A stretch of DNA of 64,000 nucleotides from Bacillota bacterium (GCA_963929915.1 CAWVJY010000008.1:226705-290704), one strand, 5' to 3'; shown: positions 2,722-53,820, numbered from the stretch's first letter. Translations and numbers: made by a program. Notes: generated by a model not told the origin, from the sequence alone.

Positions 2722-4450
<1,729 letters not shown>

Positions 4451-4476: not shown

Positions 4477-4535
4477 AGAAAACAAGACTGTTCTAAAAAT
4501 AAATTTAGTCTGATTTTAGAATAGTCTTGTTTTCT
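4477..4535. terminator. Long-arm bidirectional terminator hairpin
   Basis: AGAAAACAAGACTGTTCTAAAA (4477-4498) pairs with TTTTAGAATAGTCTTGTTTTCT (4514-4535), 21 of 22 bp with a 15-nt loop. It lies between the convergent pyrG and relB-like genes. Confidence 0.75.
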
Positions 4536-19889: not shown

Positions 19890-19942
19890 ATATTACAATT
19901 ATATTACAAATATATTACAATAATATTAAATTATGATTACAA
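19890..19942 (+). promoter_or_regulatory. Phased TATTACAA array upstream of the sepF promoter
   Basis: TATTACAAT / TATTACAAA / TATTACAAT at exact 11-bp spacing, plus GATTACAAA. TTGACA at 19955-19960 follows. Confidence 0.5.
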
Positions 19943-21349: not shown

Positions 21350-21402
21350 ATATTACAATTATTTAACATTATTACAATTGCATTAAGAAAATATTACAAT
21401 TG
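21350..21402 (+). promoter_or_regulatory. TATTACAATT(G) triplet array upstream of the rsmD promoter
   Basis: Copies start at 21351, 21370 and 21392 (about two helical turns apart). TTGACA at 21414-21419 and TAAAAT at 21436-21441 follow. Confidence 0.5.
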
Positions 21403-21464
21403 TGTTAAAAATATTGACATATTAGCTAAAAACTATAAAATAGAAGTATATCATAAGAGGTACT

Positions 21465-25138: not shown

Positions 25139-26692
25139 ATGGATAAAAAGGAAAAAATACTTAAAAAGCTTCATATAACAGATTATACAAATCGCTTAGA
25201 GAAGGTTTTGGAAAAAAAGAAATTTTCTTTCGATACCAAAAATCTTCTTTTAAGCATGTTCTATAAAATAGAAAATGGATATCAAGATTATCAAAAAACA
25301 AAAGTACAAGTAGAAAATAAAGAAGATTTTTTTGAAAAAATACTCCAAATCATTGATAAAAAATGTGAAGAAATTATTACCACCAAAGATGTTTTAGTAG
25401 ATGAAAAAAAGCAAAAAGTAGATTTTATGGTAGATAAAGAAAAAGGAAAAATCGTAGCTTTAGGAAATGAATTTGTTTTATTAAACGCTATTTTAGTACT
25501 AGGAGAAAAAGAAATTTGTTTTCCAGAAGAAGAAAAGCTTTTACAAACACCATTTACAGCCTTTTTTAATTTAGGACTAAGAATGCATGAAACAGAAGTA
25601 ATTCGAGATTTTAATGGCTGGTCATGGGATATTGTTACAAAAGATATTACCAATATTCCTGTAAATCTTATCTTCCAAAGTTTTCTATATTTACTAGGGC
25701 AAGATTTTATGGCTCAATGGATAAATAATAAGAGTGAATTAGCAGATTATTTTATGTTAGCTGCTGAGAACATGAAACAAAACTTTGGAGAAGAAAGAAG
25801 TAAAAAAATAGTATCTCTATTTTGTAAATTAGTGATAGAGATTGTGGCAGAACAGGATGAAACACAAGCAACTTTATGGAAAAAGTTAAAAAAGGAAAAT
25901 AAAATAGAATTAGAAAAATTAAGTAATAAGCCAAAATTTCTAGAAGAAATTACCAAAGAAAAAAAGGAAATCACCAAAAAAATTGAAAAAATTGATAAAA
26001 TCATGAATAATAAGATTCTTTTACAACAGGAGTATGAAGAAAGAAATGAAAAATTACCTAATAAAGAGAAGATTTTTAGTATTAGGCATTTAACCAATCG
26101 TTTAGTAGAAGAAAGACAAGAACTAGTTGAGAAAATGAAACAAAGCAACAATTTAATTGATCCAAAAGAATATGTTGCTCGTAAGGAAAAAGTAGAAAAA
26201 AGGGTAGAGTTTTTAGATAGTTTAGATTTAGAAAATAAAACAGATAGAAGAGAAGCGTTATTACAACTATGTATACTATTCTTAGAATGTTTTGAAATCA
26301 AAACCATTAAAGCACAAAAAAAGGAAGAAGTCATTCATTATTTTTACGAATTAAGATATTATCGCTTTTTACCTTTTGAAGAAGAAGTGAAACTAAAAGA
26401 AATAGAAAAATTAAATCATATTTTTGAAAAAGAAATATCATTATTAATAGAAAAAGCACAAAAAATGGCAATTATTGATGAAGTTACGGCAGATAAAGAA
26501 ATTAATCAAAAAATCATTGGAAACTTATTTAATAGTAAATTAATTGATTTAAATCATTTAATTATTGAAACAAAAGTAGAAGAAGGCAAATTATATGCAG
26601 AATATTATGATACTAATATTTTAGAAAATGTTGTAGAAGTACAAAGCAATAGAACGGTGAAACTAAAGAAAAAGACAAAATTGTTTCTTTAG
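25139..26692 (+). CDS. Hypothetical K/E-rich protein (517 aa)
   Basis: Long ORF with an SD AAAGGTGG. No motif recognised. The stop codon abuts REP1. Confidence 0.6.
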   Translation: MDKKEKILKKLHITDYTNRLEKVLEKKKFSFDTKNLLLSMFYKIENGYQDYQKTKVQVENKEDFFEKILQIIDKKCEEIITTKDVLVDEKKQKVDFMVDKEKGKIVALGNEFVLLNAILVLGEKEICFPEEEKLLQTPFTAFFNLGLRMHETEVIRDFNGWSWDIVTKDITNIPVNLIFQSFLYLLGQDFMAQWINNKSELADYFMLAAENMKQNFGEERSKKIVSLFCKLVIEIVAEQDETQATLWKKLKKENKIELEKLSNKPKFLEEITKEKKEITKKIEKIDKIMNNKILLQQEYEERNEKLPNKEKIFSIRHLTNRLVEERQELVEKMKQSNNLIDPKEYVARKEKVEKRVEFLDSLDLENKTDRREALLQLCILFLECFEIKTIKAQKKEEVIHYFYELRYYRFLPFEEEVKLKEIEKLNHIFEKEISLLIEKAQKMAIIDEVTADKEINQKIIGNLFNSKLIDLNHLIIETKVEEGKLYAEYYDTNILENVVEVQSNRTVKLKKKTKLFL

Positions 26693-26736
26693 GGACGGTT
26701 CTCAGTGGCCCCATTTGGGGTCACTTGGGACACTTC
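26692..26736 (+). repeat. REP element copy 1 (orientation A)
   Basis: GGGACGGTTCTCAGTGGCCCCATTTGGGGTCACTTGGGACACTTC, with the central hairpin AGTGGCCCC/GGGGTCACT. Confidence 0.85.
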
Positions 26737-26836
26737 ATTAAAAAGAGAAAGATTAAAAATTATTACTATTAACCAAAGACCAAAATATAAAATATAATAC
26801 AAATTATAATTTTTTAGGAGAGGATTGAAATTAAAT

Positions 26837-28605: not shown

Positions 28606-30585
28606 ATGAAAAATAAATATTATAATAATGCTATTATTGGGGGAAAAAACATTACAGCAAGTTATAGTAAAACAGGAGAATTGTTAAGGGTTATGTATCC
28701 AAATCCAGATTTTAGAAGTTGGATAGATGAATTTTTAACTGGTGTTAAAATTAATGATTCTGGAATGATTTATTTACATGAAGATTGCAATAATCAATAT
28801 CATCAATATTATACTGAAAATACCAATATTTTAAAAACTGAAATTTTAAATACCTATTTTCAATTACAAATTAAGCAAACCGATTTTGCCTTACTAAAAA
28901 ATAGCATATTGGTAAAAAAGTATGAATTTGAAAACAAAAATAATATTGATTTAAAAGTAAATTTTTTAGTACATAGTAAACTCTTATCAGATACCAATAA
29001 TATGGTAGGAAGTGAAGTAAAATATAATACACTAATTCAATATTGCCACGACTATTGTCTTTACCTTTTTTCACCATCTTCTTTATTAAGTTATCAATTA
29101 AATGATACTAAAGAAAATATTGGAAGTGGAGAAATTTATGATAAAGACTATATAGGTATGTCTTGTGATTCTAGTATTAGTTATGATATTGGAATTCTAA
29201 AACCAGGAGAAAAGAAAGAATTAGTGCTTTATTTGTATTTTAAAAATAATACGACAGCAGATATAGGAACAGAAAAAATAAGTAGTAAACAATTAGAAGA
29301 ACAGTTACTAAAAGAAATAGCCGAAATAAAAAAGATAGATGTACAAAAAGAAGAACAAGATGTAGAAAAATACTGGAAAAAATATGTAAAAGAACATTTA
29401 ACCATTCCTTTAAAACCAGAAACAAATACTTTTCATAAAAAATGGAACCAAATTTATCAAAGAAGCATTTTATTATTTCCTTTATTAATCAACCAAGAAA
29501 CAGGGGGAATTAGTGCAACTGTAGAAGTTGATGAAAATATGACACAATGTGGAAGATATGCCTATTGCTGGCCAAGAGATGCAGTATGGATTACCAAAGC
29601 ATTAGATTTGCTAAAAATGACAAAGGAAACGGAAAAATTTTATAAAATCTTCTGCAAAGAAACCCAAAGTAAAAATGGAATGTGGGAACAAAGATTTTAT
29701 ACAGATGGAAAATTAGCACCTTGTTGGGGATATCAAATTGATGAAACAGCCAGTGTTATTTATGGAGTTTATGAACATTATAAGGTAGTAAAAGATGCTA
29801 AATTTTTAAAAGACACTTATAAAATGTGTGAAAATGCTGCAAAGTTTTTAGGAATTTATTTAGATAATGTGTTAGGCACAAAAGATGAATCAGATGTGGT
29901 AAAAAAAGAAATAGAAGAAACTTACCATACAGAGGGAAGAAATAAATTGCCAGTTAGTTATGATTTATGGGAAATGCATGAAGGAGTACATTTATATTCC
30001 TTATCTGCTATTTATGCAGCCTTTGAAGCAATGAAACAAATTCATATTGTTTTAAAACCAAGTTATGAACAAAATAATCGACTAAAAGTAGAAGCAATGA
30101 ACAAACTAGAAGCCAAAATGATAAAATATCAGGAAGAAATTAAAAAGTATATACTTGCCAACTTATATGACGAAAACACTAAAACTTTTTCTAGAAACTT
30201 AAATGATAATCGTACAGATATTAGTGAACTTGGAATGATAGTACCATTTGCTTTGTTTTCTGCAAAAGAAAAAAAGGTACAAAATACTATTGAAAAAATC
30301 AATATGACATTAAGAACTTATACAGGAGGATACTTAAGATTCGAGCAAGATCATTACCGTGGTGGAACAAGTCCATGGCCAATAGCTACTTTATGGATGG
30401 CAATGTACTATCAGAAGGCTGGAGAAAGAAAAAAAGCAAAAGAATGTATCGAATTTGTTGTAAATTCTGCCAATGAACACGGCTTACTAGGTGAGCAAGT
30501 AGACAACCAAACTATGCAGCCGAATTGGGCAATTGGCTTACGGATGGGCCCATGCTATGTTTGTTTTGGGGACGGTTCTCACTGA
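28606..30585 (+). CDS. Glycoside hydrolase family 15 (glucoamylase/glucodextranase-like)
   Basis: CWPRDAVWITKAL, WEQRFYTDG, YQIDETASVIYG, DLWEMHEG, PWPIATLWMAMYY, GLLGEQV. The 3' end runs into REP2, and the expected W-AHAMFV motif is out of frame (possible indel near 30540). Confidence 0.85.
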   Translation: MKNKYYNNAIIGGKNITASYSKTGELLRVMYPNPDFRSWIDEFLTGVKINDSGMIYLHEDCNNQYHQYYTENTNILKTEILNTYFQLQIKQTDFALLKNSILVKKYEFENKNNIDLKVNFLVHSKLLSDTNNMVGSEVKYNTLIQYCHDYCLYLFSPSSLLSYQLNDTKENIGSGEIYDKDYIGMSCDSSISYDIGILKPGEKKELVLYLYFKNNTTADIGTEKISSKQLEEQLLKEIAEIKKIDVQKEEQDVEKYWKKYVKEHLTIPLKPETNTFHKKWNQIYQRSILLFPLLINQETGGISATVEVDENMTQCGRYAYCWPRDAVWITKALDLLKMTKETEKFYKIFCKETQSKNGMWEQRFYTDGKLAPCWGYQIDETASVIYGVYEHYKVVKDAKFLKDTYKMCENAAKFLGIYLDNVLGTKDESDVVKKEIEETYHTEGRNKLPVSYDLWEMHEGVHLYSLSAIYAAFEAMKQIHIVLKPSYEQNNRLKVEAMNKLEAKMIKYQEEIKKYILANLYDENTKTFSRNLNDNRTDISELGMIVPFALFSAKEKKVQNTIEKINMTLRTYTGGYLRFEQDHYRGGTSPWPIATLWMAMYYQKAGERKKAKECIEFVVNSANEHGLLGEQVDNQTMQPNWAIGLRMGPCYVCFGDGSH

Positions 30586-30613
30586 CCCCTAATGGGGCCA
30601 CTTGGGACACATC
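30569..30613 (+). repeat. REP element copy 2 (orientation A), left flank of the RAYT gene
   Basis: GGGACGGTTCTCACTGACCCCTAATGGGGCCACTTGGGACACATC. Confidence 0.85.
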
Positions 30614-30753
30614 ATATCATCTGAATTAACTCAAATGAAAAAAGAATCATAAATAATTTTAACAAGTACTTGCAAAATTATAAAAAATATGAGAAGATGT
30701 AAAAGAGAGAGAATTATAAAAAAGAGGGGCACTATCGGAGAAAGGAGGCAATT

Positions 30754-31571
30754 ATGCCTAGAAAACCAAGAGATAGGAGTCCCTCTAATTGTTACCATAT
30801 CATTACCAGAGGAATTAATAAGCAAGATATTTTCTTTGATAACAATGATAAGGCCAAACTTCTTAAAGAAATAAGTAGAACAAAAGAAAAATATGAATAT
30901 GAATTATATGCTTATGTTCTAATGCCAAATCATATTCATTTACTAATTAAAGAAAATACTCATTCGATTTCTGAAATTATGAGAAGTCTTTTGATAAGTT
31001 ATGCTGAATATATTAACAAGAAATATGATAGGATTGGATATGTCTTTCAGAATCGATTTACTAGTAGACCAGTTGAAAACGATATTTATTTTAGAAATGT
31101 GGTACGTTATATTCATTTAAACCCACAAAAAGCCGGAATTTCTATATATAGTCAATATAAATGGAGTCAGTTACCAAGATTATTGCAAAGACAATAATAG
31201 TCTGGTTGATGTAGAAAAAGGAAAAAAATAGATTTGAGAATATAAACGGAAACTTTGAAGAATCTTTTGAAAAATTTCATAATGAACAACTAAATGATAG
31301 TATAGAAGAAGAAATTATGGAGTATGAAATAAAAAGTGTGTTGGAAGATGAGGATTTATATAGAATTTTGAAAGAAAAAATAGGAGAACAAGAAATACAT
31401 AATCTTCACCGATATCAAAAAAAATATCGAAATAAAGTACTGATGCAGATATTGAAAATAAAAGGTACAAATTGTGCTCAAATTTCAAGAGTGACAGGAA
31501 TTAGTAAAAAACTAATTAAGAAAGCTAGAGAACAATTTTTAAAGAATAAACCGAAAATTAAAATAGTATAA
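30754..31571 (+). pseudogene. REP-associated Y1/HUH (IS200-like, RAYT-type) transposase with a C-terminal HTH; two frameshifts as written
   Basis: YHIITRG, the HUH motif PNHIHLL, FQNRFTS and the catalytic-Tyr region RYIHLNP. The frame moves +1 near 31170 (continuing YQDYCKDNNSLVDVEKGKK) and again in the A-run 31222-31228. It then joins ORF 31317-31571, which carries an HTH (GTNCAQISRVTGISKKLIKKA). Confidence 0.8.
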
Positions 31572-31595
31572 TTTGAATAGATTGGAGGAAATGGA

Positions 31596-31640
31596 GAAGT
31601 GTCCCAACTGACCCCTTTTGGGGTCACTGAGAACCGTCCC
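31596..31640 (-). repeat. REP element copy 3 (orientation B), right flank of the RAYT gene
   Basis: GAAGTGTCCCAACTGACCCCTTTTGGGGTCACTGAGAACCGTCCC, the reverse complement of the REP1/2 consensus. Confidence 0.85.
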
Positions 31641-31648
31641 CAGAAAAC

Positions 31649-33062
31649 ATGAAAGCAAAAACAATTTTTGTATGTAGTAATTGTGGATATGAATCACCAA
31701 AATGGCTAGGAAAATGCCCAGGTTGTAATGAGTGGAATAGTTTTTATGAAGAGAAATTAGCTATGCAAACAGGTTCAGGAAAACAGACAGAAAAGAAAGT
31801 AGTTACTCCTAAATCATTAAATGAAGTAGTAGGAAAAGATGCTATTCGTATCCACACTGGAATTGGAGAATTAGATAGAGTTCTAGGGGGAGGTTTAGTA
31901 AAAGGTTCTTTAGTATTAGTAGGAGGAGAACCTGGAATTGGTAAATCTTACTCTTATTTGGAACTTTGCGATAAAATGCAGGCAGAAGGAAAAGTTCTTT
32001 ATGTTTCAGGAGAAGAGTCTGCTGAACAAATAAAATTAAGGCAGATCGACTTGGAATCCACAATGACGACATTTTATTTTTAGGAGAAACTGATATTTCA
32101 CTTATAGAAAATACAATATTAGAATTAAAACCAAAATTAGTTATTATTGATTCTATTCAAACAATGTATTCTGAAGATATTTCTTCGGCGGCAGGAACAG
32201 TAAGCCAAGTTCGCGAGATTACAGCTCGTATTATGCGTATTTGCAAAGGAAATGAAATTACTACTATTATTATTGGTCATGTAACAAAAGAAGGAAATAT
32301 TGCAGGACCTAGAGTTTTAGAACATATGGTAGATACTGTACTTTATCTAGAAGGCGAAAGGTATTTTTCTTATCGAGTTTTGCGTGGCGTTAAAAATCGT
32401 TTTGGGCTCTACCAACGAAGTAGGGATGTTTGAAATGCAAAATGAGGGAATGGTAGAAATAACAAATCCTTCTTCTGTATTAATTTCAGAAAGGGAGGAT
32501 AATCCTTCAGGTTCTGTTATTATTGCAAGTATGGAGGGAACTAGACCTTTGTTAATAGAATTACAGGCATTAACGACACCGACTGTATTTGGTTTTCCGC
32601 GTAGAACAGCCAATGGAATTGATTATAACAGGCTTACTTTGTTAGTTGCAGTACTAGAAAAAAGGGCTGGACTTGCATTAAGTTCACAAGATGTGTATTT
32701 AAATGTAGTAAGTGGAATCAGAATTGTAGAACCTGCTGCAGACCTAGGCATGATTTTAGCTTGTTGTTCTAGTTTTAAAAATACTAGTATTCCTAAAAGT
32801 ACAGTTGTTATTGGAGAAGTACGGATTAACAGGAGAGGTAAGAGCAGTAAATTTAATAGAAAAAAGATTAAAAGAAGCGGAAAAATTAGGATTTAAAACT
32901 TGTATTATACCAGAAAGTAATAAAAAACTATTGAAAGATAAGTACAAGTTAGATATAATAGGGGTTAGAAATGTAAATGAGGCGATGAAAAGTAGTGGGG
33001 CTAAAGTAAAAGTTAAGAAATTTAGTGAAGTGTCCCAAGTGGCCCCATTTGGGGCTACATAG
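31649..33062 (+). CDS. radA: DNA repair protein RadA; three frameshifts as written
   Basis: Zinc ribbon CSNCGYESPKWLGKCPGCNEW, Walker A GGEPGIGKS, KNRFG, and a Lon-like C-terminal domain. The four track ORFs (31649, 32164, 32384, 32805) are consecutive pieces, with indels near 32040, 32408 and 32819. The last codons lie inside REP4. Confidence 0.85.
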
Positions 33063-33071
33063 AACCGTCCC
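33027..33071 (-). repeat. REP element copy 4 (orientation B)
   Basis: GAAGTGTCCCAAGTGGCCCCATTTGGGGCTACATAGAACCGTCCC. Confidence 0.85.
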
Positions 33072-33087
33072 TAGAAAGGAAAATGTG

Positions 33088-34144
33088 ATGATTACTGATA
33101 TTTTAAAAATGATTGCACCTGGTACTCCTATTCGTGATGGTTTAGAAAATATTCTAAAGGCAAAAACTGGTGCATTAATTGTCATAGGAGATAGTAAAGA
33201 AGTATTAGATTTAGTAGATGGTGGTTTCCAATTAAATATTGACTATACCTCCTCCAGGCTTTATGAACTTGCTAAAATGGATGGTGCAATTGTGTTAAGT
33301 AGCGATTTCAAAAAAATTCTTTATGCTAATGCACAATTAATACCACAGTCTAGTATTACTACTACAGAAACCGGTACTAGACATCGTACGGCAGAGCGTA
33401 CTGCAAAACAAACAGGAGCCCTAGTAATTAGCATTTCACAAAGAAGAAGTATTATTACTATTTTTAAAGGTAACCTCCGCTATGTTTTAGAAGATACTGC
33501 AAAAGTAATTTCCAAAGCAAACCAGGCATTACAAACAGTAGAAAAATATAAAAAGGTGTTTGATAATAAACTAAGTTTATTAAATGAATATGAGTTTAAT
33601 GATATTGTTACTTTAGAAAATGTAATTAATGCCATTCAACGTGCAGAAATGGTAATGAAAGTAGTAGAAGAGGTGCAAAGGTCTATTTACGAATTAGGAG
33701 AAGAGGGAAGACTTCTAGAAATGCAATTAGAAGAATTAGTTGGTGATTTAGAAAAAGAAGAACTTTTAATTATAAAAGATTATATTGCACCTGGTAAAAA
33801 ACGTACTGCAGAAAAAGTATTAGCAGAAATTCAAAGTTTAGAACATGATGATTTGATGGTTCTAGAAAAAAATAGCTAATCTTCTAGGATATGAAGATTT
33901 CGACAATTATGACGAAGTAGGTGTTTATACAAGAGGCTATAGAGTGCTTAGTAAAATTCCTAGAATGCCAAGTAATATTGTGGAGAATTTAGTTAAGTCA
34001 TTTAAATCTTTCCAACATATTTTGGCAGCAGATTTACAGCAATTAGATGATGTAGATGGCATTGGAGAGGTAAGAGCAAGAACCATTAAACAGTCTTTGA
34101 AACGTATGCAAGAACAATTTGTATTTGACAATTTAATGTTATAA
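33088..34144 (+). CDS. disA: DNA integrity scanning protein DisA (diadenylate cyclase); one frameshift in an A-run near 33867
   Basis: MITDILKMIAPGTPIRDGLENILKAKTGALIVIGD, the DAC motifs DGAIVL and TRHRTAER, and a C-terminal HhH (DGIGEVRARTIKQSL) in ORF 33944-34144. Confidence 0.88.
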
Positions 34145-34266
34145 TTGTATAATCAAAACGCAAATTTTATAAAAAATTATTTTGGCATTGTAAGGAAAAA
34201 ATTAAACACAAGGCACAAATTAAAATATAAATTTGGACAAGTAGTGTTAAAAAACAAGGAGGAATT

Positions 34267-35079
34267 ATGGAAGTATTTAAAAAAATTTTATTAATCTTAG
34301 GAATTATTATATTATTAGCAGGTATTGCTTTTGTAAGTTATGGTTTTTATAAAAAGGCAACTACCAATATTCCTAATCCAGTTGCTACCATGGAAGTAGA
34401 AGGTTATGGAACTATTAAAATTGAACTTTATCCAGATAAAGCTCCAAATACAGTAGCAAATTTTATTCGTTTAGCAAATCGTGGTTTTTATAATGGGCTT
34501 ACATTTCATAGAACCATTCCAGAATTTATGATTCAAGGTGGAGACAAAAATGGAGATGGAACAGGTTCTCCAAGTTTAAGTGATATTCAAGATGGCATTT
34601 CAGAAGAGGATAATAAAGAATATAATATTCCAGGAGAATTTATTGCTAATGGATATAATGAAAATAATTTGAAACATACCAAAGGTGTTATTTCTATGGC
34701 TAGAACTGACTATAGCCAAATGAGTACAGCTTTAACCCAATATGGCTACAATTCAGCAGGTTCTCAATTTTTTATTATGACAGAAGATAATACTTCATTA
34801 GATGGATTATATGCAGCTTTTGGAGAAATAATTGAAGGTATGGATGTTGTAGAAAAAATTGCAAATGTAGAAGTATATTATAGAGATACTGAACTTGAAG
34901 AAGGAGAGGAAGCACCAACAGATGAAGATGGGAATACCATTTCATCAGACACTCCAATAGAAGCACCTGTTATTACAAGCATTACTGTAGAAACCTATGG
35001 GGTAGATTATGGTATTCCAGAAACCAATGATGTATTTGACTATTATACATGGTTAATGCAACAATATGGAATGCAATAA
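34267..35079 (+). CDS. Membrane-anchored cyclophilin-type peptidyl-prolyl isomerase
   Basis: N-terminal TM helix, then FHRTIPEFMIQGGD...GSQFFI. Acidic C-terminal extension. Confidence 0.88.
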   Translation: MEVFKKILLILGIIILLAGIAFVSYGFYKKATTNIPNPVATMEVEGYGTIKIELYPDKAPNTVANFIRLANRGFYNGLTFHRTIPEFMIQGGDKNGDGTGSPSLSDIQDGISEEDNKEYNIPGEFIANGYNENNLKHTKGVISMARTDYSQMSTALTQYGYNSAGSQFFIMTEDNTSLDGLYAAFGEIIEGMDVVEKIANVEVYYRDTELEEGEEAPTDEDGNTISSDTPIEAPVITSITVETYGVDYGIPETNDVFDYYTWLMQQYGMQ

Positions 35080-35141
35080 AAAGATACAACCTTAGGAAAA
35101 TGACAAAACAGAAAATAGAAAACAAGAGGTAGGAAAGAAAA

Positions 35142-35348
35142 ATGGCAAAGAAAACAAACAATAAAGAAAAAATAGCAAAGAAAGTAGATAGCAAAGAAAA
35201 AAAGATACAAGAAAATAAAAAAGGAAAAGTAAAAAAAGATTTAGGAAAAATGGCAACCAAAATTATGGCTATTATTTTAGTAGCTATGATGATATTATCT
35301 GTTGCTATTACATTAATTTATTATATGGTTTATGCGACGCAATCTTAA
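35142..35348 (+). CDS. Small lysine-rich protein with a C-terminal TM helix, hypothetical
   Basis: 68-aa ORF with an SD-like AGGTAGGAAAG upstream. Confidence 0.45.
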   Translation: MAKKTNNKEKIAKKVDSKEKKIQENKKGKVKKDLGKMATKIMAIILVAMMILSVAITLIYYMVYATQS

Positions 35349-35478
35349 AGCAAGATAAAAACTGTAAAGTAAAAAGTAATTTACAAAAAAGAATATAAAA
35401 ACATAATTTGAAAAGAATATAGAAACAAAATTTGCAAAAAATAAGGTAGAAAATAAAAATAAACAAAAGAGGTAAGAT

Positions 35479-36447
35479 ATGTTTGAAAACTTCACTTTAG
35501 AATTTAATGGAATTTGGCAAGCTTTTATGAGCTATATGACAGATCTTTCACAAAATCCATTAAAACTATTAACTTTATTATTAGATTTAGTAATTGTAAT
35601 TTATATTTTATATAAATTTATTGTGTCTGCTAGAAATTCAAGAGTATGGCAATTATTAAAAGGAATTTTACTTATTTTAATTATTACAGCACTTAGCGAA
35701 ATTTTACAACTTAGAATTTTAAATTATATTTTAACATTCTTTATGCCATATGGTGTTATAGCTTTAATTGTTATTTTTCAACCAGAACTACGCAGAATGT
35801 TGGAACAATTAGGTACCAATAAAATAACCAAATATTTTGGACTAGATAAGGACTTAGCAACGAAAACAAAAGAAGATATATATAAAATAGTTATTGCAGC
35901 AACTGAACTTGCTAAAGCTAAAACAGGGGGACTTATTGTAATTGAAAGAGATATTCAAATAAAAGACATTATCGATACTGGTGTAAAAATAGATGCAGAA
36001 GTTTCCCCACAATTGATTGTGAACTTGTTTACTCCTAATACACCATTACATGACGGAGCAGTTATTATTGCTAAAAATAAAATTGCAGCAGCTGCTTGTA
36101 TTTTGCCATTAGCAGATGATAAAGATATTGCAAAAGAAATAGGTACAAGGCACCGTGCAGGAATAGGAGTATCAAAAGAATCAGACGCTATTGCTATTAT
36201 CATTTCGGAAGAAACCGGAAAAATTTCTGTTGCAAAAGATGGAACCTTAATAGCAGATGTAAAAGAAGAAGCGCTAAAAAATATTTTAATCAAACATATT
36301 GTTGCAAAACGTTTTGGCAATGAAAAAGAAGAGAAAAATGTAGAACATGAAAATGCCGACAATACCAATATAGAAGATAGTATAGAGGAAACTCAAAAAG
36401 TAAAAAATAAAAAAGATAATAACACAGCATCAAAAAATAGAAAATAA
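35479..36447 (+). CDS. cdaA: Diadenylate cyclase CdaA (DacA)
   Basis: Three N-terminal TM helices, then the DAC-domain motifs LHDGAVII and GTRHRAGIG. K/E/N-rich C-terminal tail. Confidence 0.9.
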   Translation: MFENFTLEFNGIWQAFMSYMTDLSQNPLKLLTLLLDLVIVIYILYKFIVSARNSRVWQLLKGILLILIITALSEILQLRILNYILTFFMPYGVIALIVIFQPELRRMLEQLGTNKITKYFGLDKDLATKTKEDIYKIVIAATELAKAKTGGLIVIERDIQIKDIIDTGVKIDAEVSPQLIVNLFTPNTPLHDGAVIIAKNKIAAAACILPLADDKDIAKEIGTRHRAGIGVSKESDAIAIIISEETGKISVAKDGTLIADVKEEALKNILIKHIVAKRFGNEKEEKNVEHENADNTNIEDSIEETQKVKNKKDNNTASKNRK

Positions 36448-36530
36448 ATAATACAAAATAATAAAGAAAAAATAAAACAAATATAAAAACAAACTCTAAA
36501 ATAAAAATAAGGATTCGAAATAATAAAAAT

Positions 36531-37265
36531 ATGAGAAATATTAAACTAACAATAGAGTATGATGGTAGAGAATATCATGGATGGCAAAAACAGCCAAACA
36601 GGTTAAATATTCAAGGAGAAATTGAGCAAGCTATCCAAAAGGTAACGGGAAAAACGGTAGAACTCATAGGTTCTGGAAGAACAGATGCAGGAGTACATGC
36701 TTTTGGACAGGTGGCTAATTTTAAAATTGATACAGATTTCCCAATCGAAAAAATGGCTATTGCTATTAATTCTCAATTAAAAAGATCTATTCGCATTCAA
36801 AAAGCAGAAGAAGTAGAAGAGAGTTTTCATAGCCGTTATAGTTGCCATAAAAAAACATATGCTTATATTATTGATAATTCAGAACAAGGTTCAGCCATTT
36901 ATCGCAACCTAACCTACCATATACCACAACCTTTAAATCTAGAAGCAATGCAAAAAGCAGCAGAATTTTTAAAAGGAGAGCATGATTTTACTAGTTTTAA
37001 ATCGAGTGGTACTAGTAGTAAAAGTAGTGTAAGAACTATTTATGAAGCAAAAGTTTTAAAAGAGCAAGAAAGAATTGTTATTATGCTTACAGGAAATGGA
37101 TTTTTATATAATATGGTTCGAATAATAGCAGGAACTTTAGTAGAAGTAGGACTAGGCAATAAAAAACCAGAAGAAATGCAAGATATCATTTTACAAAAGA
37201 ATAGACAATTGGCAGGAAAAACATTACCAGCACATGGACTTTATTTAATGAATGTAGAATATTAA
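36531..37265 (+). CDS. truA: tRNA pseudouridine38-40 synthase TruA
   Basis: IEYDGREYHGWQKQPN, GSGRTDAGVHA (catalytic Asp), FLYNMVRIIAGTL. Confidence 0.93.
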   Translation: MRNIKLTIEYDGREYHGWQKQPNRLNIQGEIEQAIQKVTGKTVELIGSGRTDAGVHAFGQVANFKIDTDFPIEKMAIAINSQLKRSIRIQKAEEVEESFHSRYSCHKKTYAYIIDNSEQGSAIYRNLTYHIPQPLNLEAMQKAAEFLKGEHDFTSFKSSGTSSKSSVRTIYEAKVLKEQERIVIMLTGNGFLYNMVRIIAGTLVEVGLGNKKPEEMQDIILQKNRQLAGKTLPAHGLYLMNVEY

Positions 37266-37354
37266 TGTATGAATAAAAAAGGATACAATGTACTTGTAAC
37301 CTTTTTGTTTTTTATGTCATAAAATATATAAAAAACAAAAAGGAGATAAGGAAT

Positions 37355-37780
37355 ATGAATACTTTATTAATATTTTTTGCCCTTCCTATAGCAACCATTA
37401 TTTTAGCCATTGTATTACAAAAAATATTAAAATGTGCATTATTAGTAGCAGCAACATTTTTTGCAATTTATTTAATTGTAACTTTTGCCGCTTTTGATGC
37501 TAGTTTTTTAGTCTTTGCTATTGCATATACCATTTTGGCCTATATTACGGCGGTAATAACCAAAATTATTTGCCATTGTTTAGAAATTTGGAGACAGCAA
37601 TGTAATTGTAATAATACTGGAAATGCAAGAACACAAAATACTCCAATTACCATTAATAATACAAGTCCTTGTACCAGTATTAATCTGGCAAGCGGAGCTA
37701 ATTTGTTAACAGATACAAATCAAACAACTCAAACAAGAAGAAATCATAATTGTTGCTGGAATTGTTCACGTAGAGGGTAA
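37355..37780 (+). CDS. Hypothetical membrane protein with a Cys/Asn/Thr-rich tail
   Basis: 141-aa ORF with an SD AAAGGAG: three hydrophobic helices, then CNCNNTGN...NHNCCWNCSRRG. Confidence 0.55.
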   Translation: MNTLLIFFALPIATIILAIVLQKILKCALLVAATFFAIYLIVTFAAFDASFLVFAIAYTILAYITAVITKIICHCLEIWRQQCNCNNTGNARTQNTPITINNTSPCTSINLASGANLLTDTNQTTQTRRNHNCCWNCSRRG

Positions 37781-37828
37781 ACATAAGTTTTTATTTTTAC
37801 ATGCATAATATGATTCTAAAATTTATTT

Positions 37829-37977
37829 TATAAAAGGAATAGAATTGTCTTTTTCAATTTTTAAAACCTTTCCCCTTTTGGACATCTGTAACTCGGCGTA
37901 AACGCCTCGAACAGCTGTCACAATGGTCGCCCACGCAAGGCTTAAAAATTTCAAAAGACAATTCTATTCCTTTTATA
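37829..37977. repeat. Hairpin-closed element B1 (25-bp perfect arms; core shared with B2)
   Basis: Arms TATAAAAGGAATAGAATTGTCTTTT (37829-37853) and AAAAGACAATTCTATTCCTTTTATA (37953-37977). The GC-richer core carries the nested stem GACATCTGT/ACAGCTGTC and the apical hairpin GGCG-TAAA-CGCC. Confidence 0.8.
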
Positions 37978-37987
37978 TTTAATACTT

Positions 37988-38075
37988 TATTACAATTATA
38001 TTACAAATATATTAAATTTATATTACAAACAAAGAACTTATTGTTTTTAGACGAAAAATGTTGTACAATAAATTA
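37988..38075 (+). promoter_or_regulatory. TATTACAA array plus putative promoter of the pilus operon
   Basis: TATTACAATTATATTACAAATATATTA is identical to the 19891 array, and there is a third TATTACAAA at 38021. It is followed by TTGTTT...TGtTGTACAAT (extended -10) about 50 bp before cpaB-like. Confidence 0.5.
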
Positions 38076-38114
38076 AATGATGATATTTTGTAAATTTATA
38101 AGGAGGAACAAGCA

Positions 38115-39065
38115 ATGGCAAAGAACCCAATGCAAAGAAAAGCTCAAAATTCATTTCTTTTAGGAATGTTAATCACATTATTAATAACAGGAATTATTAT
38201 TGCTGTTTTAGTAATACAACTTACTAAAATAACAAGAGAACAAAATGAGGCAAAAGCAAATTTAAAACAGGTTTATGTATTAACACAAGATGTTAATTCA
38301 GGAGATACTGTTACTACCGATATATTAACATTACAAGCAATGGACGCAAGTACTATTCCATCCAATGCACTAAGTTTAGCAGAACTAACTGCTAAAAGCG
38401 ATATTGTAGACGAAAATGGTAATCTTATTCAAAAAATGAATGTTGTTAGTAAAATAGATTTGAAACAAGGAACAATTATTACTTCTGATATGATTGCAGT
38501 ACAAGATGAATTAGCAGCAGATTTAAGAAAAGTAGAATATAATATGATTGTTCTTCCAACACAGTTACAAGATGGCAAATATATTGATATTCGTTTAAAA
38601 TTACCAACAGGAGAGGATTTTATTGTAATTTCCCATAAACAAGTAGAAATTCCTACTGTTGAAGGAATAGATTCTTTAAATAGTATTTGGTTAAACTTAG
38701 ATGAAACAGAAATTTTAACTTTAAGTTGTGCTATTGTAGAATCTTATCAAATTCAAGGTTCTCTACTATATATAACTGAATATGTGGAACCAGGCTTACA
38801 AGAAGCAGCTACTGCAACTTATTTACCAAACGATTCAACTATTAATTTAATTAACCGTGATCCTAACTGTGTAGCAGAAGCTAAAAATGCATTATTTGAA
38901 AGAAATAATAATCAGAGCACTAAAAATTCAGTTAGAAATCCTGTTAATAATAATTTAAATAATAATGCAGAAGATGCAATTGATAATGTTATTGACAATG
39001 TAGAAGAAGAAATTAGAAAAACGCAAGAAGAAAGACAAACTTATTTAGAGTCGTTAGGTGGATAA
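38115..39065 (+). CDS. CpaB/RcpC-like Flp/Tad pilus assembly protein (TM helix plus SAF-like domain)
   Basis: A basic N-terminus plus a TM helix, then VYVLTQDVNSGDTVTTDIL (SAF-type strand pattern). First gene of the operon, with SD AAGGAGG. Confidence 0.65.
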   Translation: MAKNPMQRKAQNSFLLGMLITLLITGIIIAVLVIQLTKITREQNEAKANLKQVYVLTQDVNSGDTVTTDILTLQAMDASTIPSNALSLAELTAKSDIVDENGNLIQKMNVVSKIDLKQGTIITSDMIAVQDELAADLRKVEYNMIVLPTQLQDGKYIDIRLKLPTGEDFIVISHKQVEIPTVEGIDSLNSIWLNLDETEILTLSCAIVESYQIQGSLLYITEYVEPGLQEAATATYLPNDSTINLINRDPNCVAEAKNALFERNNNQSTKNSVRNPVNNNLNNNAEDAIDNVIDNVEEEIRKTQEERQTYLESLGG

Positions 39066-39135
39066 TAGAAAAGTAAAAATATGATAATTTAGAAAATTAA
39101 TCTTAAAAAATAGAAAAAAGTAATAGGAGGAAAGC

Positions 39136-39837
39136 ATGAAAACGGTAGGATTTATAGGGGCATATGATAAAACAGATTTGATTGTTTATATAGCAAGAAT
39201 TCTAGTGGTATTAGGAAAAAAAGTTTTGGTAATAGATGCTACTACTTTACAAAAAGCAAAATATATAGTACCTGCTATTTCTCCTGCTAAATCCTATATT
39301 ACTGATTTTGAAGGTATTGATATTGCAGCAGGATTATATAATTTTACCTCAATTAAAGAATATTTAGGGATGCCTTTACATGCAGCTTTTGAATATGATT
39401 ATATTTTTATTGATGCAGATTCATCAGAAGTGATTGAAAGTTTTAATTTACAAACTGCAAACCAAAATTATTTTGTAACGGCTTTTGATGCTTATTCTTT
39501 AAAAAGAGGATTAGAAATTTTATCTGGAATAGCAGAACCAATGAAACTAAAAAAAATACTATTTTCCAAAAATTGTACTGTAGAAGAAGATGAATATCTA
39601 AATTATTTATCATTAGGCTATAAAATTATATGGGATGAAGAAAAAATTTATTTTCCATTTGAATCAGGAGACCAAACAGTTATTATGGAAAATCAAAGAG
39701 TCGCCAAAATTAAATTGAAAAAGTTATCAGAACTCTATAAAACTAGCTTGATGTATGTTGCAGAAGAATTATTAGATAATGAAAAAGAAAGTGCAAATTT
39801 AAAAAAGGCATTTAAACAATTAGAAAAAGGGGTATAA
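39136..39837 (+). CDS. ParA/MinD-fold protein with a degenerate Walker A (TadZ/CpaE-like)
   Basis: MKTVGFIGAYDKTDLIVYIARILVVLGKKVLVIDAT aligns to the ParA/MinD N-terminus, but GAYDKTD replaces KGGxGKT. Confidence 0.6.
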   Translation: MKTVGFIGAYDKTDLIVYIARILVVLGKKVLVIDATTLQKAKYIVPAISPAKSYITDFEGIDIAAGLYNFTSIKEYLGMPLHAAFEYDYIFIDADSSEVIESFNLQTANQNYFVTAFDAYSLKRGLEILSGIAEPMKLKKILFSKNCTVEEDEYLNYLSLGYKIIWDEEKIYFPFESGDQTVIMENQRVAKIKLKKLSELYKTSLMYVAEELLDNEKESANLKKAFKQLEKGV

Positions 39838-39842
39838 AGTTC

Positions 39843-40688
39843 ATGGCAATAATTACATTTTGTAGTAATGAAACTAAAGAAACAGGACAAACCTTATCTT
39901 TAGCGGCAATTGCTTCTTTTATGGCAATTGAGCATAATTATAAAATTCTAGTAGTATCCACAAATTTTAATGATTTGAGCTTAGAAAATTGCTTTTGGGA
40001 ATATAACAAAATAAGGCCATCTGGAGCAATTAAAATAGATGGACAAAAAAATGTGGGGCTAGAATCTGGAATAGAAGGATTAATTAAAGTCTTAAATAGT
40101 AATAGAACTAGTACTGAAATTGTAAAAAACTATTCTAGAATTGTATTAAGAGATAGATTAGACGTTTTTTTATCACCTATTACAAAATCTTATCAAGAAT
40201 ATACACAAATTACACCATATTATACAAACATTCTTCAAATTGCTAATAGGTATTATGACTTGATATTTGTAGACTTAAGCAAAAAAATGCCTAAACAAGA
40301 TGCAAATGACATTTTACAATTATCTGATATTGTTGTGGTAAACCTTACTCAAAGATTAAAAACAATAAATGATTTTATGCAATTAAGAGAATCTAACGAA
40401 TTTTATCAAAGAAAAAATGTAATGCTTGCTATAGGAAGATTTGATAAATTTTCTAAATATAATAGCAAAAATATTACTAGATATTTAAAAGAAAAGAAAT
40501 TAATTTCTGTAATTCCTTATAATACATTATTTTTTGAAGCTTGCTCAGAAGGAACCATTATTGACTTTTTACTAAAAGTAAAGAACATTACAGATGAAAC
40601 AGACCGTAATAGTAGTTTTATAAAAGAAATTCAAGCAATAGATAATAGTATTATTTTTAAATTACAGGAACTACAAATGAAAATGTAA
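39843..40688 (+). CDS. Second ParA/MinD-fold protein with a degenerate Walker A (TadZ/CpaE-like)
   Basis: MAIITFCSNETKETGQTLSLAAIASFMAIEHNYKILVVSTN has the same fold pattern, with SNETKETGQT in place of the P-loop. Confidence 0.55.
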   Translation: MAIITFCSNETKETGQTLSLAAIASFMAIEHNYKILVVSTNFNDLSLENCFWEYNKIRPSGAIKIDGQKNVGLESGIEGLIKVLNSNRTSTEIVKNYSRIVLRDRLDVFLSPITKSYQEYTQITPYYTNILQIANRYYDLIFVDLSKKMPKQDANDILQLSDIVVVNLTQRLKTINDFMQLRESNEFYQRKNVMLAIGRFDKFSKYNSKNITRYLKEKKLISVIPYNTLFFEACSEGTIIDFLLKVKNITDETDRNSSFIKEIQAIDNSIIFKLQELQMKM

Positions 40689-40715
40689 TCCTATTAGAAA
40701 GGAGACTTTAAAAAG

Positions 40716-50886: not shown

Positions 50887-51034
50887 TGCGTTCTCCTCTA
50901 ACTTCTATTTTTCCGTTCCATCCCTACTTCCTAACAGACTTTAAATAAAATTTTATTTTATAAAATTTTATAAAAGTCTGTAAGTCGCTGGTCCCCACAG
51001 CCTCACTACAAAATAGAAGTTAGAGGAGAACGCA
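50887..51034. repeat. Hairpin-closed element C (25-bp perfect arms)
   Basis: Arms TGCGTTCTCCTCTAACTTCTATTTT (50887-50911) and AAAATAGAAGTTAGAGGAGAACGCA (51010-51034). The inner stem is ACAGACTTT/AAAGTCTGT around an AT palindrome. The C-rich internal loop carries GGTCCCCACAGCC. Confidence 0.75.
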
Positions 51035-51092
51035 AAATTAAAAAAGTTTAAATTTTAAAAAAATGGTTATCCTAATAAAAAAGGAGAGCCAT

Positions 51093-52461: not shown

Positions 52462-53601
52462 AAAAGAAATAAAAACATAAAAATTTTAATTATTTTGCTG
52501 TGTATTATAATGGCTGTTATCTTAGGCTGTTTAATTTATATTTCCATTGGGATTAATCATTCTCCTAGTACAAATGAGCTAGAAAATATACAGCAAAATG
52601 AACCAACTACATCAACAGAACCACAAAATAATGTAATAGAAAATGTAGAACAACAAAATATAGTAGAACCAATTTTAAATGAAATTACAAATCCTCAAAA
52701 CAATCAAACTAGTCAAGAAGTAATTTCTTCTACTTATTATTATGGACAGTTAGATGATAATGCCAAAATTATTTATGATGCTTTAAAAGAAAATAAGGAA
52801 AATATGAAAACAGGAACCTATGAGCTAGATTTTGAAACTCAGTTTAATACACTTTTACATACAGAAACAGGAGAACAAGAATTACAAACGGCTTTTCAAT
52901 CAGCCTGGAATGCTTATTCTTATGATCAAGCAGATTTATTTTACATAGATTCACAAAAACTAACCTTAATGAATGAATATGTTAATGTAGGAGGAATAGT
53001 AACTTATCATATTTCTATAGGACCAGGAGAAAATGAAAACTATTTATTAGATACTTTTCAAGAAGCAGGAAGTATAGAACAAGCAGAAAGTTATATTCAA
53101 AATATTGTAGACCAAATTGTGGAACAAACGCAAAATGACTCTGTAGTGGAAAAGGCAAGAAGAATTCACAATTGGTTAGTAAGCTCAGTAAGCTATGAAG
53201 AATCTGAAGAAAATAAAAATCGTTTTGAAATTTATGGAGCACTTCATGACCAAAGGGCAGTTTGTGAAGGATATGCCAGAAGTTTTAAATATTTAATGGA
53301 AAAAGTAGGAGTCCCTTGTGTTTTAGTGTCTGGAACGGGAACTAATTCAGAAGGAAAATCAGAAAGCCATGCATGGAATTACATGCAAGTGAATAATGAG
53401 TGGTATGCAGTAGATGTTACATGGGATGACCCTGTAGTAGTGGGAGGAGAAACTCCAGGTACAAATACTTTATATCGTTACTTTTTAAAAGGATCAGAAG
53501 AATTTTACAAAGACCATAAAGAAGAAAATATTATTTCAGAAAATAGTATGAGTTTTAGATTTCCTACATTATCTACAACAGACTATGAGTTAGATTTTTA
53601 A
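52462..53601 (+). CDS. Membrane-anchored transglutaminase-like (cysteine-protease-fold) protein
   Basis: AVCEGYARSFKYLMEKVGVPCVLVSG...HAWNYMQVNNEWYAVDVTWDD is the Cys-His-Asp transglutaminase-core pattern. Confidence 0.8.
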   Translation, partial: KRNKNIKILIILLCIIMAVILGCLIYISIGINHSPSTNELENIQQNEPTTSTEPQNNVIENVEQQNIVEPILNEITNPQNNQTSQEVISSTYYYGQLDDNAKIIYDALKENKENMKTGTYELDFETQFNTLLHTETGEQELQTAFQSAWNAYSYDQADLFYIDSQKLTLMNEYVNVGGIVTYHISIGPGENENYLLDTFQEAGSIEQAESYIQNIVDQIVEQTQNDSVVEKARRIHNWLVSSVSYEESEENKNRFEIYGALHDQRAVCEGYARSFKYLMEKVGVPCVLVSGTGTNSEGKSESHAWNYMQVNNEWYAVDVTWDDPVVVGGETPGTNTLYRYFLKGSEEFYKDHKEENIISENSMSFRFPTLSTTDYELDF

Positions 53602-53820
53602 AATAAGAAACTGTTCTAAAATAGAATAAATTTATTTTAAAAAAGTATTAGGATTGTCTTTTTCAATTTTTAAAGCCTTTCCCCTTTTGGACATCTGTAC
53701 CTCGGCATAAATGCCTCGAACAGCTGTCACAATGGTCGCCCACGCAAGGCATAAAAATCTCAAAAGACAATCCTAATACTTTTATTATACATTATATATT
53801 TTTAGGACAGTTTCTTATTT
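53601..53820. terminator. Outer bidirectional terminator-type hairpin whose loop is occupied by element B2
   Basis: AAATAAGAAACTGTTCTAAAA (53601-53621) pairs with TTTTAGGACAGTTTCTTATTT (53800-53820), 20 of 21 bp. It lies between the convergent transglutaminase-like gene and murC. Confidence 0.6.
53641..53783. repeat. Hairpin-closed element B2 (copy of B1)
   Basis: Arms AAAAGTATTAGGATTGTCTTTT and AAAAGACAATCCTAATACTTTT. The core is nearly identical to B1, and the differences are compensatory. Confidence 0.8.

Follow-up and report, generated by a model that had tools for sequence, protein, structure and literature searches.

The window, as we call the whole 64,000-nt stretch of DNA analyzed here (Bacillota bacterium; GCA_963929915.1, CAWVJY010000008.1:226705-290704), is part of the 29% GC chromosome of a spore-former with genes for SpoIVB, CdaA, TruA and MurC; close homologues are named 'Intestinibacter sp.' or 'Clostridia bacterium' in their sources. 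The longest direct repeat of the window is formed by two elements, B1 and B2 (Table 1), which are found at the positions given for them in a preliminary description of this DNA and share about 90% of their bases in an alignment of about 173 nt. B2 lies between the gene for MurC and a facing transglutaminase-like gene. The end of B1 is followed after 137 nt by an ATG at 38115, and the region 38115-50869 comprises ten consecutive ORFs, an operon conserved across the clade. The preliminary description had placed B1 about 140 bp before a pilus operon; while the distance is correct, the pilus label is without significant Pfam support, as none of the ten ORFs gave a significant match and a sub-threshold SAF domain was seen in the first ORF only. 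Four small paralogs encoded in this region have a common N-terminus (MENASKALIIAG).

Two other kinds of repeats were observed in the window. In the first, TATTACAA repeats with a period of 11 nt precede three genes or operons (37977-38036, 19891-19939 and 21370-21407). Those downstream of B1 are conserved, together with the promoter region there, in species with a 72-75%-identical SAF-domain protein (L061 and L062); since they are retained in species lacking B1, they are part of the operon and not of B1, and are probably an operator or promoter element of the operon that follows it. The second is a family of GC-rich palindromes of about 50 nt (GGGACGGTTCTCAGTGGCCCCATTTGGGGTCACTTGGGACAC; 26688-26743, 30565-30615, 31596-31646 and 33022-33077), which are found at gene ends in either orientation and have a REP-like look.

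About 13 substitutions separate B1 from B2, eight of which make up four compensated pairs, as had been described: three arm differences are exactly complementary (left G/T, A/T and A/G against right C/A, T/A and T/C), and the apical stem GGCG..CGCC of B1 reads GGCA..TGCC in B2. The 150-nt rod drawn for B1 is likewise what it folds into, be it as plus-strand RNA (-55.5 kcal/mol, z = -10.2), as minus-strand RNA (-63.7 kcal/mol, z = -9.2) or as single-stranded DNA (-38.6 kcal/mol, z = -12.2), and no shuffled sequence folded as well for either RNA strand or for ssDNA. A tandem G-A/A-G motif ascribed to the rod exists on the minus strand, which carries two tandem G·A motifs and also folds better, the plus strand reading TC/TC at this point. 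The minus-strand ORF, correctly described as unconserved, measures 43 codons in B1 and 35 in B2 and not the 33 codons first given; neither ORF has a ribosome-binding site, and since 1-nt indels at three sites among the copies of the family described below break both frames, a conserved ORF is ruled out and a small protein was rejected as a candidate. A scan of 30000-49999 for sigma-70-like sites (at least 9 of 12 matches) found none within 37829-37977 and no promoter-like site beside B1.

Table 1. Positions of B1, B2 and associated hairpin features, counted from the first nucleotide of the window
Feature	Position	Strand	Remarks
Empty O hairpin without B	4477..4535	.	CTAAAA...TTTTAG arms; loop AATAAATTTAG as in O hairpins
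Possible O left-arm remnant, GATTCTAAAAT	37812..37822	+	Compared with O arms; right partner absent; weak
B1	37829..37977	+	Complete family member, 149-nt rod; covariance model match 180 bits
B1 outer left arm	37829..37853	+	Pairs with 37953-37977; variable, covarying zone of the family
B1 TC/TC 2x2 internal loop	37854-37855 and 37951-37952	+	From the B1 fold
B1 middle stem, left side (AATTTTTAA..CCTT)	37856..37870	+	Pairs with 37937-37950
B1 asymmetric core	37871..37936	+	C-rich 5' loop, stem GGACATCTGT/ACAGCTGTC, apical hairpin, 3' loop
B1 apical hairpin GGCG-TAAA-CGCC	37895..37906	+	Stem covaries
B1 outer right arm	37953..37977	+	From the fold and covariation in 29 copies
Unrelated inverted repeat	50895-51035		22-bp arms GTTCTCCT(C/T)TAACTTCTATTTT; upstream of spoIVB
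O left arm around B2	53601..53621	+	
B2	53641..53783	+	Complete family member; covariance model match 169 bits
O right arm around B2	53800..53820	+	Followed by T-rich tail

A dispersed family with a conserved asymmetric core

The preliminary description treated B1 and B2 as a two-copy element; sequence searches instead revealed a dispersed family of repeats with the behavior of mobile DNA. When an exact 20-mer taken from the core's 3' internal loop was searched against one genome per species, it matched 19 loci: 17 loci with 18 copies in the MAG CABUKD01 ('uncultured Clostridium sp.', human gut) and one locus each in two further Clostridia MAGs. A second, overlapping 20-mer searched against metagenome contigs again gave 19 loci, two of them chance matches and 17 true copies, the latter from human-gut assemblies of additional related species. 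In total the family has at least 30 distinct loci in several low-GC human-gut Clostridia, collected by exact core 20-mers that diverged members would escape. A covariance model, of the kind suggested as a check but built from 29 copies, and nhmmer both recovered only complete units in the 330-409 kb of fetched DNA, and neither found more diverged members there. Short-read contigs of the window's own species stop within B1, as expected of a repeat, and the family breaks short-read assemblies of its host genomes.

Comparison with Rfam, another of the proposed checks, gave no family for B1 or B2: at the gathering threshold the entire window yielded two tRNAs and nothing else, and at E-values up to 10 the best match in the B1 region was a Plasmodium snoRNA model at 24 bits against a cut-off of 80 bits, which is noise. 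A known Rfam family was rejected on the basis of both searches. The family was also without a match in blastn searches against phages and plasmids and against 5,426 E. coli genomes (20,395 records), had 0 matches among the IMG/VR viral contigs, and four strings from its core are absent from the literature searched and from the first 200 of the 408 supplement files of a catalogue of gut structured RNAs. B1 and B2 are copies of a previously uncatalogued family of palindromic repeats of about 150 bases, and the family is so far known from no more than a few related uncultured Clostridia of low GC content from the human gut.

In a multiple alignment of 29 copies (A2) the element consists of five parts, namely outer arms, the TC/TC internal loop, middle stem, asymmetric core and apical hairpin. 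The outer arms, of about 19-25 bp, differ among copies, with a pairwise identity among paralogs of 75-83%, as against 86-95% in the middle stem and 93-95% in the left half of the core. This left half was used in none of the searches and its value is hence unascertained, while the conservation of the right half is partly a matter of ascertainment, as the copies were found by exact 20-mers lying there. The core is the best-conserved part of the family, and its asymmetric loops (TTCCCCTTTT on the 5' side and the 13-nt CAATGGTCGCCCACGC on the 3' side) are kept in 29 of 29 copies; it also contains two 8-bp palindromes, ACAGCTGT and ACATCTGT, 29 nt apart. This asymmetric core of about 65-75 nt is under purifying selection.

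When the 29 copies were placed on the structure proposed for B1 and B2, 95.8% of the cells were paired and 22 of the 54 pairs had changed on both sides. We counted 86 doubly changed cells, as opposed to 19.9±3.3 in column shuffles (none of 500 shuffles reached 86) and 13-16 in controls in which the partners were slid by 1-3 columns; RNAalifold found the same helices independently. The covariation is located in the outer, middle and apical stems, an apical stem pair, for instance, being A-U in 21 copies and G-C in six; the core stem never varies and is therefore uninformative. Many of the double changes are transversions, which have no wobble intermediate. The hairpin of this family is a maintained, non-coding feature, which bears out the earlier claim that it was not there by chance. 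That account had also envisaged that further copies might differ by random substitutions, or that the element might prove to be a MITE: the additional copies show compensated changes in the covarying stems, and the evidence set out below does point to a MITE-like element, though one that no database names.

Gene ends, outer hairpins and lineage-specific presence

Copies of the family are located where genes end, at their 3' side, and lie within or beside transcription terminators. Among 20 classifiable copies, 11 lie between convergent and nine between co-directional genes, with none between divergent ones; convergent pairs account for 12% of the intergenic regions of the same loci (enrichment of the copies p = 5 × 10–6). 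The distance of the copies to stop codons is 0-90 nt. Both orientations occur in co-directional contexts (about 7 vs 5), and ten co-directional copies are followed by housekeeping genes that have no relation to each other, coding for HPF, UDPGP, an EPSP-synthase-family enzyme, RNase Y, Fic, DpaA, an ABC ATPase and others; a gene-specific cis-regulator or riboswitch was rejected on this ground.

Nine copies, about half and B2 among them, are enclosed by an outer terminator-like hairpin (AAGAAGCTGTCCTAAAA...TTTTAGGACAGCTTCTT), which we designate O. It has the stem GCTGTCC/GGACAGC and a T-rich tail, its inner span is a constant 176-181 nt in the nine copies, its arms covary too, and in the predicted fold it closes around B: at 53601-53820, O and B2 together form a single 220-nt rod (-76.5 kcal/mol, z = -11). 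The window also has an empty O directly after a gene end, with a 22-bp stem and a 15-nt loop (Table 1). By itself, B does not look like a canonical intrinsic terminator, having an AT-rich base followed by only 3-4 T; none was called at B1 in a terminator scan, which covers loops of up to 8 nt.

At orthologous sites the presence of copies differs between lineages. The B2 site holds O and B in the window, L002 and L052 (MurC identity at least 89%), a plain terminator hairpin in L053 (82%), a different hairpin-closed element with z = -8.7 in L054 (83%) and a 26-nt spacer with a canonical terminator in L056 (78%). B1 was found in all fetched strains of the window's species, and the orientation of B1 and of B2 was the same in all strains observed. 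In a sister species whose flanks are 86-92% identical, B1 is missing and its site is taken up by a canonical terminator together with an element related to that of L054; in a further species, with an adjacent SAF-domain protein of 72% identity, the site has nothing but a canonical terminator. B1 and B2 are accordingly lineage-specific gains. One copy has been retained across two species (L035a and L036, flanks 78-88% identical), with about three differing sites in the core and six of 16 outer-arm positions changed, all of them compensated. Terminator regions between convergent genes are thus exchangeable cassettes, with different hairpin elements in different species.

The element of the L054 type (L054:3935-4125, L058:1690-1850 and L006 at about 2278) belongs to another hairpin-closed family, with AT-rich arms of 15-22 bp and a core containing GACCGACAA(A/G)TTAGA, and fills in the sister species the intergenic sites held by B2 and B1 in the window. 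The copy L035b is closely followed by three tandem units, each about 45 nt long (AAACATATTCCAATCGTTTTATTATGCACAAATAAGTCTT; L035:6330-6560). The plain terminator at the B2 site of L053 (L053:3915-3960), which lacks B, has a 9-mer (ATTAGGATT / AATCCTAAT) that is also found in the B2 arms, on opposite sides of the hairpin; this may be chance.

As to how the copies arrive, the comparisons at L036/L050, L035/L049, the B2 locus and the B1 locus yielded whole-cassette differences or intergenic regions too diverged for alignment, and no clean pair of a filled and an empty site. Alignment of 36 copies at the stem base revealed no target-site duplication or recurrent direct repeat in their flanks, and no fixed insertion site was found. 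The outer arms, as the least conserved part and with differing lengths, offer no conserved terminal inverted repeats, and the 36 loci contained no transposase or parent IS with matching ends. We rejected the notion that a core had been inserted into older palindromes, as 409 kb held no core-less arm-like palindrome and the arms of the copies are homologous to each other.

Core inversion and the origin of the compensatory changes

One orthologous locus, which precedes an ABC-transporter operon, has the core in both orientations. The contigs L036 and L039 remain collinear for 10 kb, their flanks being 96-99% identical (about 94-99% for L036 against L039/L048); the ~105 nt between the arms AATATTATAAGTGTCTTT and AAAGACACTTATAATATT have opposite orientations in L036 and in L039/L048, the element being 100% identical over 138 nt in the reverse comparison, and the crossover falls in the outer-arm zone. 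The core points one way in ten contigs (L036 and nine others) and the other way in two (L039 and L048), and these two have common extra insertions of 26-28 nt just beyond both arms. Because the orientation is tied to linked flanking insertions, the flipped form is a stable haplotype rather than a rapid switch. The paralogs differ in the same manner: relative to the asymmetric spacers of O, the core of B2, L002 and L004 is opposite to that of L009, L010, L012, L016 and L018, with the arms of L004 and L018 being identical.

Other changes perfect or alter the stem in one step. Beside the apical stem, TC has become GA in L003a, L003b and L016, giving an 8-bp perfect stem; a T to G change perfects GACAGCTGT/ACAGCTGTC in L001, L015 and L019, with the same T to G in L017; and the outer TC/TC loop has been replaced by differing Watson-Crick pairs in about six copies. 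Between close strains, L024 (of the window's species) has an A-T pair in place of the apical G-C of the other B1 strains, i.e., GGCA..TGCC, with about six differences over the 334 nt of the intergenic region, and a T:A to G:C pair change separates the arms of L039 from those of L048. Partial outer-arm duplications lie in tandem beside copies, as three 19-nt units at L003:7488-7550 and, at about 4073-4100 of the flipped allele of L039, as three units of 13 nt. A flip and arm compensation are also seen outside the family: compared with its ortholog (L002:5255-5340), the unrelated inverted repeat upstream of spoIVB has an inverted spacer, one compensated arm pair and a 62-nt AT-rich hairpin insertion, the spacer in L002 measuring only 34 nt.

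Template switching in inverted repeats homogenizes arms and inverts spacers (PMC8604942; PMC8794818), and also gives rise to multinucleotide changes, inverted-repeat expansion and hairpin maintenance (PMC8604942; PMC13100816; PMC8794818). The flip of the core, the dinucleotide changes that perfect the stem and the flip of an unrelated repeat are signatures of this process and argue against taking the compensation as selection at the RNA level, the preliminary description having seen in it a selected RNA or ssDNA structure. We infer that template switching causes much of the compensation: as a process at the DNA level it explains much of the compensatory signal more simply and also covers the flips. 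Some of the double changes between close strains could alternatively stem from gene conversion between paralogs. Template switching would, however, tend to erase asymmetry, yet 29 of 29 copies are asymmetric, so that a sequence-specific constraint on the core is needed as well; this additional selection on the asymmetric loops could act on an RNA.

The reading we favor, with our confidence in it about evenly balanced, is that of a non-autonomous palindromic family resembling ERIC, REPIN and MITE elements, residing in terminators and having a constrained asymmetric core. Copies would be gained lineage by lineage and land at the 3' ends of genes, preferably between convergent ones, with about half of them entering the loop of a terminator-like outer hairpin. 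The rod fold of B would let the surrounding terminator stem still close, which would explain both the tolerance of the insertions and a selective reason for complementary arms; the element is probably tolerated as, and serves as, part of a bidirectional terminator. The upkeep of the long stem would be largely mechanistic, with template switching copying one arm from the other at the DNA level; this would yield apparent compensation, including transversions and dinucleotide changes, and flip the segment between the arms, and selection for a foldable hairpin, if any, would add to it. The core might be the recognition module for a putative protein, either a mobilizing enzyme or a DNA- or RNA-binding factor. 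If it does have such a dedicated partner, the family would provide a handle on a new mobilizing enzyme.

An unlikely alternative is that B is a structured non-coding RNA, i.e., a 3'-UTR element or a multi-copy small RNA, with a stem kept by selection at the RNA level and a core that binds a protein or targets; candidate interactions would be of the loop UUUCCCCUUUU with Shine-Dalgarno sequences or of the purine-rich AAAAGGGGAAAGG of the other strand. The very strong covariation in two helices, the location of the copies in transcribed 3' regions, the better folding of the minus strand with its two tandem G·A motifs, and a core that at the L035a/L036 locus is better conserved than the adjacent coding DNA would all suit an RNA. 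Against this, the co-directional copies have no orientation preference and one locus has both orientations, which makes a strand-specific RNA function hard to sustain. On the plus strand, A·C mismatches slightly outnumber those of the G·T type (19:9), but without significance in the wobble-pair strand test (p = 0.09), the many double changes by transversion passed through no wobble intermediate, and the tandem G·A sites have become Watson-Crick pairs in several copies. There is, moreover, no promoter-like site in or beside B1 and no Rfam relative, and the lineage-specific presence, with unrelated hairpins instead in sister species, fits a dispensable element. Covariation in a long hairpin is by itself no proof of a functional RNA: as spacer flips and one-step perfecting make 'compensatory' patterns without selection, R-scape-like scans of palindromic repeats will over-call RNAs.

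We regard it as distinctly improbable that the family represents a new hairpin-borne mobile or regulatory module read via its conserved asymmetric centre and not its ends. In one version, each genome would have about 20 flip-flop units, and their orientation would determine in which direction termination or antisense transcription runs at gene ends; in the other, a single-strand hairpin recombinase not yet described would act on the element and insert it into terminator loops. We put still less trust in B being a duplex or cruciform DNA site for a host protein such as a nucleoid or topology factor, with the ACAGCTGT palindromes being bound and the hairpin secondary. Binding of such a factor has been proposed for BIMEs, and the independence of orientation, the two 8-bp palindromes in the conserved core and the very stable ssDNA fold are consistent with such a site; but duplex binding needs no complementarity of the arms, and yet the variable outer arms stay complementary, sister species lack the element at the same loci, and we know of no such protein or comparable site.

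Least probable of all is that the copies are programmed invertible switches (invertons) whose core is flipped by a site-specific recombinase, altering read-through into or transcription of neighbors such as the operon that follows B1, for although inverted repeats surround an asymmetric conserved segment, both orientations occur at one orthologous locus and among paralogs, and an operon begins about 140-150 nt after B1 and likewise after the L036 copy, the orientation is haplotype-linked, B1 and B2 do not vary in it, the crossover took place within the outer arms, which are not of the same sequence in all copies (unlike the core site of a recombinase), the core has no promoter-like motif in the sigma-70-like scan, most copies lie between convergent genes with no obvious target for a switch, and an unrelated inverted repeat flips too with a spacer of 34 nt, unlikely for a recombinase synapse.

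Comparison with known systems

The closest architecture is that of ERIC (or IRU) elements, which were reportedly described as enterobacterial, intergenic imperfect palindromes of about 127 bp (Hulton et al. 1991 and later work) and are said to have a better-conserved centre, to lie in transcribed 3' regions in either orientation and to come without a transposase. B shares with them the size class (127-150 nt), a single long imperfect palindrome with the better-conserved part in the middle, an extragenic position in transcribed 3' regions, either orientation, tens of copies whose number varies between related species, and the want of both a transposase and an obvious target duplication. It differs from them in having no sequence similarity (blastn, E. 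coli), in belonging to another phylum and a 29% GC host, in often being nested inside an outer terminator hairpin, and in a core flip documented between strains.

Bacterial MITEs, e.g., Correia elements of Neisseria, RUP and BOX of pneumococcus and bcr1 of the Bacillus cereus group, are able to adopt RNA folds and to influence termination or the stability of mRNAs. Like them, B is small, non-coding, multi-copy and intergenic, has inverted repeats and differs in presence between relatives. In contrast to them, it has no target-site duplication, unconserved termini and no parent IS among the 36 loci, its inverted repeat runs through the whole element, and all matches were complete 150-nt units, with no transposase gene flanked by copies.

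REPINs are REP doublets mobilized by RAYT transposases (PMC3116915). Common to REPINs and B are extragenic hairpin-forming repeats, long persistence in a lineage and a presumed single-strand hairpin intermediate. The gradient of conservation is reversed, however: a REPIN conserves the two REPs of its arms and leaves the spacer free but for pairing, and B conserves the centre and leaves the arms free, with no pair of inverted, conserved REPs of 20-40 nt in them. Copies of B number tens and not hundreds, and no RAYT (TnpA-REP) gene, of the kind that REPs usually flank, was seen in the ~8-kb loci around the copies or in the 64-kb window.

With invertons the family has in common the two orientations at the L036 locus, and not a promoter within the segment, at least as judged by the sigma-70-like scan. 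With template switching at quasipalindromes it shares arm homogenization, multinucleotide perfecting, spacer inversion and outward growth of the arms (PMC8604942; PMC8794818; PMC13100816); this is a mutational process and not a family, and while it accounts for the flip and the compensated changes, it leaves the dispersal and the conservation of the asymmetric core unexplained. The present family adds an ERIC/REPIN-like element to the uncultured low-GC gut Clostridia, for which descriptions of repeats of this sort are scarce. Its best place is among the long intergenic repeats of bacteria that form imperfect palindromes, being ERIC-like in architecture and REPIN- or MITE-like in behavior: a new repeat family, but of a known, 'junk-like' kind of bacterial repeat, and not a new kind of RNA gene.
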